A stretch of DNA of 64,000 nt, taken from contig OZ245015.1 in assembly GCA_965223705.1 (NCBI GenBank), positions 384,001-448,000 of the forward strand. Direction: 5' to 3'. Positions 36,001 to 42,000 of the stretch are shown here, in pieces. Each line of letters begins with the position of its first letter. Within the stretch, counting starts at the first letter, position 1. Made by a program: the position numbers. Source of the stretch: Myxococcota bacterium. GTDB lineage: Bacteria; Myxococcota_A; UBA9160; UBA6930.

Positions 36001-39000
36001 GTGTTCTCGCCTTCGCGCATCGAGGTCGTGGATTTGGATCTCCCCCAGGGTTTTGCGACGGTCGAGGGCTTTGGCCGCACGTTCGTCGGGCGACTCCAAC
36101 GCGACGGCGAAACGGTGCACGCCATCGTCACGTCGGGGCTGCCTCCGGAATCGGTTGTCGCCGAGGTCCGGCGCAAGTCCGCGACGCCACGCGACGTGAG
36201 CGCTTCGGTCCGCGAGTTCGCACGAAGCGCGCTCGCGAGACGAATCGACTGCGCGGGCGCCCGCCTCGCGGTTTCCCGGGGCGGCAAGATTCCGCTTCTG
36301 CTACGCGATGGGAGGCCGTTGCCGCGGCTGCTCTCGCTTTCTCACCACGGGCGCGCCGAGGCGTTCGCATGCTCGCGCGATCTCGCCGAGGTGGCGGCGT
36401 GACACAACCGATAAAGCGAGATATCAAGCTACTCGGCATCGTCAACCGCGGCGAGGCGGCGATGCGCTGTATCCGCAGCGCAAAGGCGCTGCGCGCCCGG
36501 GAAGGCAGTGATCTCCAAACCCTGGCGCTGTTTACTCAAGCCGATCGCGAAGCGCCGTTTGTGCGCTATGCCGATCGCGCCCTTCGGTTGGCCGAGCCGC
36601 GCGGTGCGGTCGCCGCCTATCTCGACCACGACGCCCTGGTGCGCGTGTTGTCCGAAGCTTCCGTCGACGCCGTGTGGCCCGGCTGGGGCTTCTCCGCGGA
36701 GCACCCGGAGTTCGTCGACAAACTCGCCGCCGCGGGAATCCGCTTCCTCGGGCCTTCCGCCGAGGCCATGCGCCGGCTCGGAGACAAGATCGCGTCGAAA
36801 GAGCTCGCAGAGTCCGTCGACGTTCCCGTCACCGCATGGAGCGGCGGCGCGCTCGCGGACTACGAGGCCGGCCGCGTAGCGGCCGAGCGCGTCGGTTATC
36901 CGCTTGTCGTCAAGGCCTCCGCGGGTGGGGGCGGTCGAGGCATCCGCTTCGTCAACGCGCCGGAAGACCTCGAGGAAGCGATGCGCTCAGCCGGCAGCGA
37001 AGCGGTGACGGCGTTCGGAGACGGTCGTCTGTTCCTCGAGAGCGCCGTTCGCACCGGCCGTCATATCGAGGTGCAGATCCTGGCCGATCAACACGGCCAC
37101 GTCTTTGCGTTGGGAAGTCGCGATTGCTCGGTGCAGCGGCGTTTTCAGAAGGTGCTCGAGGAAGCGCCGCCTCCTGGGTTAGCGCCCGAGGTGCAGAAGG
37201 GGCTTCTCGAAGCGGCGGTCCGGATCGCGTCGAGCGTCGGGTATTCCGGAGCGGGCACGGTCGAGTTTTTGGTCGACGGCGATCGCTACTACTTCCTCGA
37301 GATGAATCCTCGACTCCAAGTCGAGCACGGCATCACCGAAGAGATCACCGGGCTCGATCTCGTCGAGTTGCAGATCCGCGTCGCTCGAGGTGAAGACCTC
37401 GGTGACTTGTCGTTCCGACAGCAAGGGCACGCGATCGAGGCCCGGGTTTGCGCTGAAGATCCCGATGCGGGCTTCATTCCTTCGCCGGGGCGGATCGCTC
37501 GGTTCGATCCGGTCCTCGGCCCCAAGGTCCGAATCGATACGGGGGTGGCTCCTGGGACCGACGTTCCAGACGCGTTCGATTCGCTCATCGCGAAGGTCAT
37601 CACAAAAGGCGACGATCGTCACGAGTCGACCTCCCGACTGCGCGCTGCGCTCGCGGATTTCGATCTCGTGATCGAAGGCGGTGCGACAAACAAGGGCTAC
37701 CTCCTCGAGGTGCTAGAAGATCCGGAATACCAGGCGGGCGGCGTCGACGTCGGTTGGCTCGATCGCTTCGGCGAGGCGAAGCGGCCGACCCGAGAACACG
37801 CGGCCCCGGCCCTCGTCGCCGCGTCGATTCTGACGTACCAGTACGGTCGAAACCTCGCGCGCTTGAACTTCTTCGCCGACGCGAGCAATCCGAGCCCCGA
37901 TCGCGTGCCGGCGTCCGTGGGCCAGGAAGTCGATCTCTCTTACGCCGGCGAGCAGTACCCGCTCGAGGTGTACGCCCTGGGCGGTTGGCGCTATCGCGTT
38001 TATTCCGAGGGTTCGTTCATCACCGCGACCCTTCGCGAAGAGGGGCCCCACCGCGCGCGGCTCGAAATCGGCGACACGGTGCTTCCGATCCTGTACGACA
38101 CCACCGAAGCCGGGCTGCGGATCGAAGTCGCAGGGCTCGCCCATCAGTTCGGCTGGCAGACCGTCGGTCAAGTGCGCGCCGCGACGCCGGCCATGGTGAT
38201 CGGCGTACACGTTTCCGTCGGCGACCGCGTCGATTCCGGACAGCCGCTCGGCATTCTCGAGGCGATGAAGATGGAGATCGGGTTCGATGCGCCCGTCGCC
38301 GGCGTCGTCACTGACGTGGGCGTGCGCGCGGGTCAGCAGGTCAAGGCGGGCGAAGTGCTGCTCGTGATCGATCCCGTCGACGACGCGGGCGAATCCGTTG
38401 CGACGACCCGCATCTCGCTTCCGGAAGTCGCCGATCCTTTGGCGCTCTTGTTCGGGGGAGAGAAAGAGCTCGGGTCTCCCGATCTCGCGCGCGCAGCGTC
38501 GAGCGAAGGCGCCGAACGCCACGCCGCACTCGCTTCGGTACGTGAAGAACTGAGTCGCGTGATCCTCGGTTACGACATCAACCCGACGCGGGCGGTCCGT
38601 CTGATCGAATTCCTCGAAGCGCCCGTCGACGAATCGCTGCCCGCTGTGTTCCTGAAGGAACTCGCGGAGATCGCGGACATGCTGGCGGTGGCTGCCGACA
38701 TCGAGCAGCTCTTCGTGCGTTCGCCGCGGGCTTCGGTGTCCGGAGAGCTCGGCCCGTCGAATTCCGCGCGTTTCCGTATGTTCGTCCGCCGGCTCCGCGC
38801 CGGCGGTTCGGGTATCGCCCCGGAATTCCTCGAGCTCGTTTCGAAAGCGCTTGCTCACTACGGGATCGAGGCTCTCGAGCACAGCGACGCGTTGGAGCGA
38901 GCCGTATTGCGGCTCATTGCTTCGCAAGCGCCGAATCCAAAGCGCCAGGAAATCGTTTCGGCCCTCATTCGCCAAGCGGTGGCGCTCACGCGCGCGGGCG

Positions 39001-42000
39001 TGCCGCTGGTCGACAACTGGCCGCTGGCCGACGCGCTGTCGAGGCTTTCCGATATGCGCGGCCTCGTGTCCGACGCTGTGGCCGACGCGGCGATCGATGC
39101 GCGCTACGAAATTTTTGAACGACCCGGGATCGATGCGCGCCTGGCGGAAACGGGCCGGGAGCTCGACGCCTGGCTCGCCGCGGCTGAAACCGAAGCCACC
39201 GAGCCGCCCCAAGGCGTGTTGCGAGATCTCGCGGACGCGCCGCGTCTCGTGTTCGATCGGATCGGCGGAGCCGTCGCCGACCCGGATCCGCGGCGTCGCG
39301 GGCTCGCCCTCGAGGCGCACTTGCGAAGGTTCTACACCCCGGTCGGTTTTGCTTCACGCGTCGCGACCGTGCACGGCGGTGTCTCCATTCTGCGCGCCGA
39401 GCTCGACGACCGTCGGATCGTCCTCGGGGCCGCGTGTGATCGCGGCAACGCCGCCCAGGCCTTCGATTGGCTGAAGCGGACCGCCGCGTCTCTGCGCGAT
39501 CAACACGAGTGGCCGGCAGTAGCGGCGCTCGAGCTGATCGTTCCGAGCGGAAGCGACGGCGACGCACCGATCGATGCGGAGATCCGGTCCGGTCTGGCAG
39601 AGGGCTTGCCCGCCGCGAGGGTGACCATCACCGAAGTCGAAGCCGGGCGCCCCGACGTGTGCACGACGTTCGTTCCCGACCCTTCGGGCTACGCGGTCGC
39701 GGACGGACTGCACGGCGTTCACCCCGAGGCCGCCGAACGAATCGACCTCGCCCGGTTGGCGCGTTTCGATCTGACCCGTCGCGATGCGCCCGAGGGTCTC
39801 TACGCGTTCTACGCGCGCAGCCGCGAGGTGCCCGAAGACGAACGGGTCTTCGTCCTTGCCGACGTGCGCGGGCGTCGGGCCGACGCGAATCGTCGCGACG
39901 AGATCAATCCCGCGGCTTTTGAGAAGGCGTTCGTCGAAGCGACCCGTGCGATGCGGTCTTTGGTGGCGAGTACCGACACGAAGCGCCGGCTTCTTTGGAA
40001 CCGGATCGGGATCTACTGCGGCCCGCCGGTCCGGCTCGACCCGGAACTGACCTGGGATCTCACGCGTCGCCTCTGGCCGACGACCCGTCGCTTGGGTCTC
40101 GAAAAAGTCGTTGTTCGGGTCGGTCTGATCGAAGATGGGGCTCCCGTTACACCGACCGAATTCGTGATCACCGATATCACCGGTTCGAAGATCGATCTCA
40201 TCCGCCGCGAGCCGCGCACGAGGCCGCTCGAACCGGTGAGCGACTACGAACGGAAAGTCGTGTCGGCCAGAAGCCGGCGCCTCGTCTACCCGTACGAAAT
40301 TATTCGCATGCTGACCGGTAGTGGAGCGGGTGACCCCGGGGCCGGGGCTGCGATTCCCATGGGCGAGTTCGAGGAATACGATCTCGAACCCGGAGAGGGT
40401 CCGCCGCGGCCGCGGCGCGTCTCGGGCCGTCCGTTCGGACTGAATGAAAGCGCAATCGTATTCGGCGTGATCACCGCGCCGACCGACAAACACCCCGAAG
40501 GCCTGACCCGAGTCATCGTCTTGTCCGATCCGACGATCGGCATGGGCGCCCTGGGCGCTCCGGAATGCGACCGCATCGAGGCGGCGATCAACCTCGCGGA
40601 AGACATGGCGGTTCCGCTCGAATGGCTGCCCGTTTCGGCCGGTGCGAAGATCGCCATGGACAGCGGGACCGAGAACCTGGACGCCACCGCCCGCGTCGTG
40701 AAGCGGATCGTCGAATTCACCCAGAGCGGTGGCGCGATCCACCTGATCGTGCAAGGCGTAAACGTCGGCGCGCAGAGCTACTGGAATGCATTGGCGACAA
40801 TGTTGATGCACACCCGCGGCGTTCTCATCATGACGCCCGGCGCATCGATGGTGCTCACCGGTCGCGCGGCGCTAGAAGCTTCGGGAGCCGTCGCCGCAGA
40901 AGATGAAGTCGCGATCGGGGGATTCGAGCGCATCATGGGTCCGAACGGACAAGCGCAGTACTTCGCTTCGGATCTCGCCGACGCGTATCGGATCCTCTAC
41001 CAGCACTATCGATATTCGTACGTCGCCCCGGGAGAACGCGCTCCGCGGCTCCACATGACGAAGGATCGCGACGATCGGTCGCTCCTCGAAGCACCGTGCG
41101 AACCCGACACCGACGGCTTCCGCTCCGTCGGCGAGATTTTCGAGGACGAGACGAACCCCGGGCGGAAGAAGCCGTTCCCGATGCGCTCTGTGATGCAAGC
41201 TCTGGTCGACGAAGACGGAGGGCACCTCGAGCGTTGGAACGCCTGGGTCGGCGGCGAGACGGGTATTGTCTGGGACGCGCACGTGGGCGGCGTCCCGATT
41301 ACGCTCGTCGGAATCGAAAGTCGCAACGTCGACCGCGAAGGCTATCGGCCCCTCGACGGGCCGGCGTCGTGGAGCGGTGGCACGCTGTTTCCGCAGTCGT
41401 CGAAGAAAGTCGCTCGCGCCCTCAACGCGGCGAGCGGAAACCGCCCGGTCGTGGTGCTGGCCAACCTCTCGGGCTTCGACGGTTCACCGGAATCGATGCG
41501 CAAGCTCCAGCTCGAGTACGGCGCGGAAATCGCTCGGGCGGTTGTCAACTTCGACGGGCCGCTGCTGTTCCTCGTGGTTTCGCGCTATCACGGCGGAGCC
41601 TACGTCGTGTTCTCTCAGGAGCTGAATCCGTCGTTGCGCGCGTTCGCGCTCGAGGGTTCTTACGCGTCGGTGATCGGCGGAGGCGCCGCGGCGGCAGTGG
41701 TATTCACGCGCGAAGTTCGAAAGCGCGCGGCGGCGGACGAGCGGGTCACGGGCGCGCGTAGCGAGCTCGCGAGGTCGGGCACGCAACAAGCGCGAGCCCA
41801 GCTCGAGGCAATTACCGAGGAAGTCAGCCTCGAGAAACAGTCCGAGCTCGCGGCGGAGTTCGACGCGGTCCACTCCGTGGCACGAGCGGAACGAGTCGGC
41901 TCTCTCTCGGGCATCGTTTCGCCCAAGGAGATGCGCTCCTTCGTCGTGCGGACGCTGCGCGAAGCGTTGGGCCACGAAGGAACGTCGCGTTGAAGCGCCG

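Follow-up and report, generated by a model that had tools for sequence, protein, structure and literature searches.

A single-chain, eukaryote-like acetyl-CoA carboxylase in a fatty-acid synthesis operon of a Myxococcota bacterium, a probable substitute for AccABCD

Described single-chain carboxylases and the Myxococcota locus

The closest described enzyme is SACE_4237, presented in passages of PMC6491548 as an assayed, essential and dimeric acetyl- and propionyl-CoA carboxylase (ACC/PCC) that complements E. coli accB(ts), and as the first in bacteria, together with an argument for an actinobacterial origin of eukaryotic-type ACC. Passages of PMC3098273 deal with type R secondary lipid synthase clusters and mention a Koribacter gene, seen in 2011 and called 'part of the ACC complex'; the PfaA-linked paralogues of such clusters belong to the same family as the enzyme studied here (41-43% identity) and differ from it in that the gene follows a KS-AT-ACP-KR-DH megasynthase and can co-occur with AccA. 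Proteins of the LCC/AccS type (~1200-1500 aa) also join biotin carboxylase (BC), BCCP and carboxyltransferase (CT) in one chain but have no central domain, and Shewanella AccS has a different domain order according to passages of PMC11602165.

The locus lies in a 64,000-nt stretch of a Myxococcota bacterium (GCA_965223705.1, OZ245015.1 384,001-448,000), hereafter the window, in whose positions all feature coordinates are given:

30213..31187, +, enoyl-ACP reductase-like SDR; best NCBIfam match FabL, below cut-off
31184..32194, +, fabH-like ketoacyl-ACP synthase III
32191..32919, +, fabG-like ketoacyl-ACP reductase
32912..33370, +, fabZ-like dehydratase, the genome's sole PF07977 match
33367..34647, +, fabB/fabF-like elongating ketosynthase
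34774..35022, +, acyl carrier protein, second in the genome (the other is in the fabD cluster)
35031..35786, +, PlsC-like acyltransferase (PF01553)
35773..36402, +, AcpS-type phosphopantetheinyl transferase
36399..41993, +, single-chain acetyl-CoA carboxylase, 1864 aa from the likely GTG start; 41% end-to-end identity to L158
41990..42817, +, methionine aminopeptidase (map), 4-nt overlap with the ACC stop

The genome-wide survey's note had placed the ACC at the end of a fab operon ordered fabG-fabH-fabZ-fabB. The FAS-II operon is indeed present, with seven of its nine gene junctions overlapping and one of 8 nt, and its genes are probably co-transcribed. We read the order as enoyl-reductase-like SDR, fabH, fabG, fabZ, fabB/F, acp, plsC-like, acpS, ACC, map, and since map and the ACC stop overlap, the ACC is not necessarily the operon's last gene. 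A promoter scan returned no sites, and there was no terminator excess. The ACC frame is real and intact, as the note held: it runs uninterrupted from 36369 to 41993 (+), 1874 codons from ATG 36369, with its domains in order. The more likely start is GTG 36399, preceded by GAGGTGG and overlapping the end of acpS by 4 nt, so that the likely length is 1864 rather than 1874 aa. Public contigs from two runs of one study, possibly of the source sample, are indel-free at the ACC, and a single public contig covers 34718-40874 gap-free.

As a single chain of ~200 kDa with intact motifs and the order BC-BT-BCCP-central domain-CT, the window ACC is, to judge from its sequence, a member of the known SACE_4237-type family, whose range is much wider than published. 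Our comparator was not SACE_4237 itself but its Saccharopolyspora orthologue L158 (S. halophila), found via the forward primer of PMC6491548: the full primer matched no genome, and without its first three letters it matched 22 loci in actinobacteria, with no S. erythraea among their titles. L158 has the same domain order, is 41% identical over 1884 columns, shares the BC, BCCP and CT motifs and falls in the same clade with 100% support. The actinobacterial loci examined show no FAS-II operon, whereas the window host is Gram-negative and has one.

Domain architecture and central-domain fold

The eukaryotic order BC-BCCP-central domain-CT proposed in the survey's note holds, with a BT region added between BC and BCCP:

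36426..37763, +, BC domain (Pfam; conserved residues)
37764..38186, +, BT (BC-CT interaction) region, helix plus strands, aligned column by column with eukaryotic BT (profile-profile)
38187..38369, +, BCCP domain; motif EAMKM, with the biotin-bearing lysine K624 at 38268
38400..40298, +, central domain, made up of helical CDN/CDL and two alpha/beta CDC domains (AlphaFold2 model, Foldseek, VIA-align)
40299..41993, +, CT domain (PF01039, E 6.5e-33)

Pfam gives the same succession in 1874-aa numbering (BC 20-465, biotinyl 607-667, ACC_central 844-990, CT 1377-1862); ACC_central (PF08326) is weak, at E 4e-4 and 19.2 bits against a cut-off of 23.2, and a Pfam search gave no match to PF21385 (BT). 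Eight BC residues (K130, K172, E289, E301, N303, R305, E309 and R349 in 1864-aa numbering), which we take to be the catalytic positions by analogy with AccC, are invariant in nine aligned family members; one BC motif position is F in the window ACC and H or N in most. The best PDB matches of the CT are fungal ACC CT domains (E 5e-21, versus 9e-12 for the best bacterial beta subunit).

By sequence, all seven PDB matches of the central region (700-aa query) at E<=0.1 are fungal ACC, as had been noticed before, although the best E-value, 0.004, is weaker than the 1e-5 then claimed. An AlphaFold2 model of the domain built from a 126-row alignment reached pLDDT 92.9 and pTM 0.91 (single-sequence prediction gave pLDDT 43). 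The Foldseek matches listed at E<=1e-3 (24 of 31) are all eukaryotic ACC chains, VIA-align gave Z 24.1 over 489 aligned positions (rmsd 7.1), against 7.8 for the next unrelated structure, and the fold matches are to yeast, Chaetomium and human ACC, with AC1-AC5 covered. This strong fold match of the model, alongside a weak sequence match, supports a true eukaryote-like central domain. Compared with the eukaryotic ACC1/ACC2 of yeast, Chaetomium and human, the window ACC is collinear over 1778 profile columns (probability 100) but about 350-450 aa shorter and 24% identical, with a long branch between the clades. Short turns join the first CDC strands in the model, so the 36-residue phospho-regulatory loop described in passages of PMC4833862 seems to be absent.

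AccABCD and the supply of malonyl-CoA

The separate AccA and AccD of the four-subunit enzyme were not found in the window genome (95% complete), the former by TIGR00513 and the latter above cut-off. TIGR00513 was preferred to PF03255 because the latter exceeds its cut-off on the genome's beta subunits. Among 121 genomes sampled from the class, 107 carry the single-chain family and two carry AccA, in both cases on small contigs (2.5 and 3.9 kb) of genomes that also have the single-chain gene; the survey's note had counted AccA in 0 of 31. Its description of the ACC as a core enzyme of the class fits these 107 genomes but not as a universal rule, since 14 of the 121 have neither type, including seven of the nine members of family f4 and a single-contig genome that is 96% complete.

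In Spirochaetia (n=121), 28 genomes have the single-chain form, 44 have AccA and one has both; these counts rest on the class sample because some NCBI MAG labels look wrong. Three loci labelled 'Spirochaetales' (L194, L211, L223) share 58-61% identity with the window protein and have the same neighbours. Of 201 genomes of the host's phylum, 75 have the single-chain form and 70 have AccA, nine of them having both, and 65 have neither. All such exclusion counts overstate the pattern because kin are not independent, and Fisher tests, which take no account of kinship, are given no weight. Taken together, the FAS operon, the absence of AccA and AccD and the near exclusion in Spirochaetia make it well supported, at the level of sequence, that the single-chain ACC stands in for AccABCD in the class and in unrelated Spirochaetia, as the note had proposed for the class.

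At least one FAS gene adjoins the ACC in 14 of 14 loci examined in the host's order; in the class's second order the ACC is mostly found apart from them (4 of 5 loci). For class relatives with an orthologue of the operon's fabB (n=71), this gene lies upstream of the ACC at a distance of up to 8 kb in 62, and in the remaining nine the two genes are on different contigs.

The reading we favour, with a probability of roughly three in four, is that the window ACC would be the housekeeping acetyl-CoA carboxylase of its host. BirA, of which the genome has one, would biotinylate K624; the BC domain would carboxylate biotin with ATP and bicarbonate, and the tethered BCCP would swing to the CT, which would transfer the carboxyl group to acetyl-CoA and probably also to propionyl-CoA, as SACE_4237 does. 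The enzyme is probably a homodimer joined through its CT domains, in which the central domain would serve as a flexible scaffold, and it would presumably be essential. Its malonyl-CoA would feed a two-locus FAS II, with FabD (the genome's only one), AcpP and FabF drawn from a separate rpmF-fabD-acpP-fabF cluster elsewhere on the chromosome and FabH, FabG, FabZ, enoyl reductase, a second ketosynthase, ACP, AcpS and PlsC supplied by the ACC locus.

It is unlikely, if not negligibly so, that the window ACC is an ACC but not the sole or main source of malonyl-CoA. The genome has seven other CT proteins, and contributions might come from a PCC-like trio (G000:C1 ~248.0-251.6 kb), whose BC subunit scores 653 bits against an accC cut-off of 626.5, or from an LCC-like single chain of 1227 aa (C1 3148.4-3152.1 kb), which lacks the central domain and whose CT falls in the outgroup. 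Relaxed acetyl/propionyl specificity is reported for actinobacterial two-subunit enzymes and LCC in passages of PMC6491548. In five relatives examined that have neither ACC type, 4-7 CT proteins per genome are kept, and four of the five have a FabF-like match; given the frequency of such genomes in class and phylum, other carboxylases or lipid uptake can therefore serve in close relatives. However, the trio fits catabolism, since it adjoins acyl-CoA dehydrogenase, malic enzyme and IclR and the genome encodes methylmalonyl-CoA mutases; another CT gene adjoins AtuA, and the single-chain gene is missing in none of the 71 class genomes with the fabB orthologue.

We consider it distinctly improbable that the operon is a dedicated special-lipid pathway and that the ACC feeds only this, perhaps with methylmalonyl-CoA. 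The operon does have its own ACP, ketosynthase and acyltransferase beside the separate fabD cluster, and dedicated use occurs in the family, because the clade tied to PfaA-like synthases co-occurs with AccA (Acidobacteriota genome checked, family f24). Yet the same operon holds the genome's only FabZ-family gene, best FabH match and sole AcpS match, and in a genome lacking AccA and AccD the housekeeping FAS would otherwise miss steps. That the long frame is a product of misassembly or of a chance joining of separate subunits, to which the sub-threshold PF08326 match might point, is ruled out by full-length orthologues of ~1850 aa across many genomes and assemblies, by the confident central-domain model with its fold match and by the indel-free public contigs.

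Distribution and origin of the family

The survey's note had presented the ACC as a core enzyme of one Gram-negative class, but the family is found in many phyla: it occurs also in other Myxococcota, Oligoflexia, Spirochaetia, where two loci have the ACC head to head with fabH-fabD-fabG-fabF, and Acidobacteriota, where the copies lie behind PfaA-like synthases. This revises the view that Gram-negatives rely on a four-subunit enzyme, the multidomain form being a feature of eukaryotes and some actinomycetes. NCBI gives proteins of the family the names 'ATP-grasp' or 'carboxyl transferase domain-containing', and annotation and metabolic models miss it. It also provides a candidate ACC for many Spirochaetia, in three genomes of which a 2011 survey found none, according to a passage of PMC3199775.

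In the CT tree, a quick mixture model, the window CT groups with actinobacterial multidomain ACCs in a clade nearer to eukaryotic ACC than to PCC, MCC and LCC; the outgroups of the CT and BC trees are the window genome's own CT and BC proteins only. The window ACC lies neither inside the eukaryotic ACC1 clade nor as its nearest sister, and it matches PF08326 only below cut-off and PF21385 not at all. The earlier label 'eukaryote-type' thus suits the central domain, but the enzyme is a distant cousin rather than the nearest bacterial relative of eukaryotic ACC. AU tests reject eukaryotes and this class as sisters (p 0.016 for CT, 0.0007 for BC+CT), and reject both this class and the actinobacteria as donors of eukaryotic ACC. 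For the SACE_4237-type family as nearest sister of eukaryotic ACC the AU p is 0.031, and other bacterial proteins are much closer, namely 2000-2800-aa ACCs in another, small-genome deltaproteobacterial phylum, some of whose genes lie directly before fungal-type FAS I genes. Without the proteins of this phylum, the BC tree leaves the eukaryotes unresolved. Two proteins, P0149 and P0196, belong with the small-genome-phylum proteins by grouping or by resemblance; both are in the CT and BC trees (P0196 in later trees also), and the AU sets contain neither. Actinobacteria as the deepest branch of the family is rejected by BC+CT (p 0.006) but not by CT alone (p 0.54, the constrained tree scoring 1.2 higher).

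A scenario that we offer tentatively, and think possible rather than probable, is that single-chain ACCs bearing a central domain represent an old and diverse bacterial invention centred on deltaproteobacterial lineages. The SACE_4237-type branch would have replaced AccABCD on two or more occasions (this class, Spirochaetia) and come to actinobacteria late via the PfaA-linked clade, and eukaryotic ACC would derive from within the wider bacterial radiation, nearest to the small-genome-phylum grade. Alternatively, this grade may reflect repeated protist transfer into host-associated bacteria followed by fast change. These results undercut the proposal that eukaryotic ACC came from actinobacteria, and the intermediate sequences make the question testable with trees; if the scenario is true, the eukaryotic malonyl-CoA step would have a traceable bacterial source.

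Compact members of the family, of ~1700 aa, exist in which part of the central domain is missing; as natural minimal enzymes, they would suit structural studies and, in engineering, the supply of malonyl-CoA from one gene.

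The single-chain carboxylase and its operon

The window protein is a genuine member of the SACE_4237 family of bacterial acetyl-CoA carboxylases (ACCs), an enzyme kind already known, and we put the probability that it is the housekeeping ACC at about three in four. As the genome-wide survey's note had stated, BC, BCCP and CT domains lie in eukaryotic order in a single open frame (36369-41993, + strand), where a span of about 630 residues separates CT from BCCP. The start given there (36369, 1874 aa) gives way to a likelier GTG at 36399 (1864 aa), favoured because it overlaps the acpS stop and has GAGGTGG just 5'. 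Public contigs from one study contain no indel in the gene, a check that is not independent because these contigs possibly derive from the source sample.

Upstream lie genes for an enoyl-reductase-like SDR, fabH, fabG, fabZ, fabB/F, acp, a PlsC-like protein and acpS, and seven of nine junctions in the operon overlap; the ACC gene belongs with the fatty-acid genes as noted but need not be the last, since map follows directly 3'. Between fabB and acp (34616-34747) the end of fabB recurs in four perfect tandem copies of 33 bp, and similar short duplications of gene ends occur at 1040-1138. Most order relatives (L030-L036, L054 and L055) carry about 600 bp extra after fabH that the window lacks, with a weak second FabZ-like match in some. 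Ahead of the operon (26285-29952) are genes for an exonuclease-DinG helicase and an SDR; of 14 order loci read, seven retain dinG upstream.

Nine aligned family members, two of them actinobacterial orthologues, share without exception BC residues K130, K172, E289, E301, N303, R305, E309 and R349, which have catalytic roles in AccC, as well as biotin lysine K624 and the CT motifs. The best PDB matches of the CT are fungal ACCs (E 5e-21); bacterial beta subunits follow at 9e-12. The central region, said earlier to match only fungal ACC chains, matches fungal and human ACC by fold, and its sequence match is weak. Its AlphaFold2 model (126 aligned relatives, pLDDT 92.9) retrieved yeast, Chaetomium or human ACC in every Foldseek row shown at E<=1e-3, and in a search of 48,161 chains Z was 24.1 for yeast AC1-AC5, the first unrelated chain below it reaching 7.8. 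A profile alignment of nine bacterial proteins with 15 eukaryote-type ACCs spans 1778 columns at 24% identity, and over its full length the window protein shares 41% identity with the orthologue of SACE_4237 in Saccharopolyspora halophila.

Probable replacement of AccABCD

That the enzyme stands in for AccABCD is favoured by the lack of any AccA, and of any AccD over cut-off, in the 95%-complete genome, and by near-exclusion with AccA elsewhere. BirA is present, the only FabZ sits in the ACC operon, and the one FabD lies in a separate rpmF-fabD-acpP-fabF cluster. Against a role as sole ACC count seven other CT proteins, including a PCC-like trio and an LCC-like chain. Within the class, where as in all such counts here kinship inflates the numbers, 107 of 121 genomes hold a family member (which in G072 and G097 is the PfaA-linked paralogue alone), and AccA occurs in two, on contigs of 2.5 and 3.9 kb, so that its reported absence from 31 class genomes holds as near-absence and not as a strict zero. 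The operon's fabB orthologue, found in 71 class relatives, is just upstream of ACC in 62 and on another contig in nine. Fourteen class genomes, including seven of nine in family f4, have neither ACC type, and all five examined lack the operon's fabB as well. The single-chain ACC, proposed as a core enzyme of the class, is therefore typical but not universal there, and other carboxylases can evidently cover for it in relatives. G005, G017, G068, G081 and G086 are near-complete order relatives without either ACC type or the operon's fabB.

The Spirochaetia offer an independent test of replacement: of 121 genomes, in counts again inflated by kinship, the single-chain enzyme occurs in 28, AccA in 44, both in one and neither in 50. 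At two of their loci (L181, L184) the ACC gene stands head to head with fabH-fabD-fabG-fabF, which ties the enzyme to FAS II independently. In the window's own phylum, with the same inflation, the figures for 201 genomes are 75, 70, nine and 65; family f24 supplies five of the nine, and the one f24 locus read is PfaA-linked.

Breadth and variants of the family

Eukaryote-type ACC had been regarded as limited, among bacteria, to actinobacteria. This does not hold: hosts among the matches listed, at most 80 per scan, include other Myxococcota, Spirochaetia, Oligoflexia, Terriglobia, Holophagae (Sulfidibacter), Binatia and Neomarinimicrobiota besides actinobacteria, and searching 50%-identity representatives with a central-domain profile yields 890 proteins, fragments included, at E<=1e-30. 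Family genes are repeatedly met in three settings: in FAS-II operons, at the ends of PfaA-like synthase genes, and as stand-alone copies. A PfaA-like synthase lies upstream of 6/6 class paralogues scanned, and one upstream family is common to 77 of 78 PfaA-linked loci. This paralogous clade (L046-L051, L060-L137), downstream of KS-AT-ACP-KR-DH synthases, is very common in Terriglobia; P0122 fuses KR-DH to ACC, and P0121 has an enoyl-reductase-like (NMO) domain.

Proteins of the class's second order mostly measure about 1700 aa, and all eight examined are missing model residues 261-291 and 298-428, roughly 160 central-domain residues that would correspond to the linker bundle and first CDC domain.
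L041, L042, L044, L045, L052, L056-L058: compact forms of about 1700 aa
At the two compact-form loci scanned, a molybdopterin/4Fe-4S gene lies upstream of ACC; L041 also has genes for NrfD and cytochrome c (alternative complex III-like). Lengths fall further in other members from the phylum, to 1626-1760 aa. Members of 2300-2600 aa (P0126, P0127, P0249; L180) carry a C-terminal biotin-protein ligase and possibly biotinylate themselves.

SACE_4237 is described as an essential dimeric ACC/PCC in PMC6491548, whose text, tree figures aside, names orthologues in actinobacteria only and proposes an actinobacterial origin. Passages of other papers note that in Koribacter an ACC gene sits between pfaA and pfaE, but do not see in it a complete enzyme (PMC3098273), describe the central domain as eukaryote-only (PMC4833862), leave the origin of eukaryotic ACC unresolved (PMC3199775) and treat AccS (PMC11602165); 'carboxylase' is absent from the main text of PMC12872458. 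Listings from searches of the open literature gave no paper on the family in Myxococcota, Spirochaetia or Oligoflexia, and subscription journals and most supplements, outside that scope, may hold a prior mention. The lineage and operon setting of the window's ACC were likewise not found in print in the literature searched. Points that merit following are how widely the family is spread, the apparently repeated displacement of AccABCD, and the relatives that come closer to eukaryotic ACC.

Relation to eukaryotic carboxylases

A tree with eukaryotic and actinobacterial sequences, the check named in the survey's note, has now been run. In CT and BC+CT trees (quick searches, SH-aLRT support only, subsets of 33-86 rows, outgroups from the window's own genome) the bacterial family is a single clade (100) next to that of the eukaryotes, and actinobacteria fall inside its PfaA-linked group. 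AU tests reject eukaryotes grouped with actinobacteria (p 0.004 CT; 4e-5 BC+CT) or with the window's class, presumably UBA9160 (p 0.016; 7e-4); an actinobacteria-first root is rejected with BC+CT (p 0.006) but not with CT alone (p 0.54).

Proteins from the small-genome deltaproteobacterial phylum of G409, presumably UBA10199, resemble eukaryotic ACC far more than the window's family does. A scan with eukaryotic ACC found there a protein of 2791 aa, encoded without introns, that shares 35% identity with animal and fungal ACC across 2200 residues; such genes occur in 14 of 93 genomes of the phylum searched, with PF08326 over cut-off and, in some, PF21385. FAS I genes directly follow ACC at three loci, two with fungal FAS-beta domains; other loci have bacterial neighbours.
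L274:2560-10935 (G409:C31): 2791-aa ACC, on a 128-kb contig titled Deltaproteobacteria bacterium
L359:10430-14998: ACC, then giant FAS I with fungal FAS-beta domains
L360:13131-17999: ACC, then giant FAS I with fungal FAS-beta domains
L367:2-8737, L368:13000-19998 (G409): ACC, then giant FAS I with AT, MaoC and KS, then an AcpS-type gene

In CT and BC trees these ACCs form several branches around the eukaryotic clade, bracketing it. Tests reject their monophyly (p 0.0008) but do not reject that of eukaryotes (p 0.13), and they speak weakly against placing the window's family as the nearest sister of eukaryotes (p 0.031). The pattern may reflect a bacterial source of eukaryotic ACC or repeated transfer from protists, and because branches are long throughout the trees, either could be correct. 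The ACC and FAS I pairs resemble a bacterial ACC1-FAS1-like cluster, and the phylum's ACCs (L274, L354-L366) span 2000-2800 aa, often with long unrelated extensions at the N and C termini.
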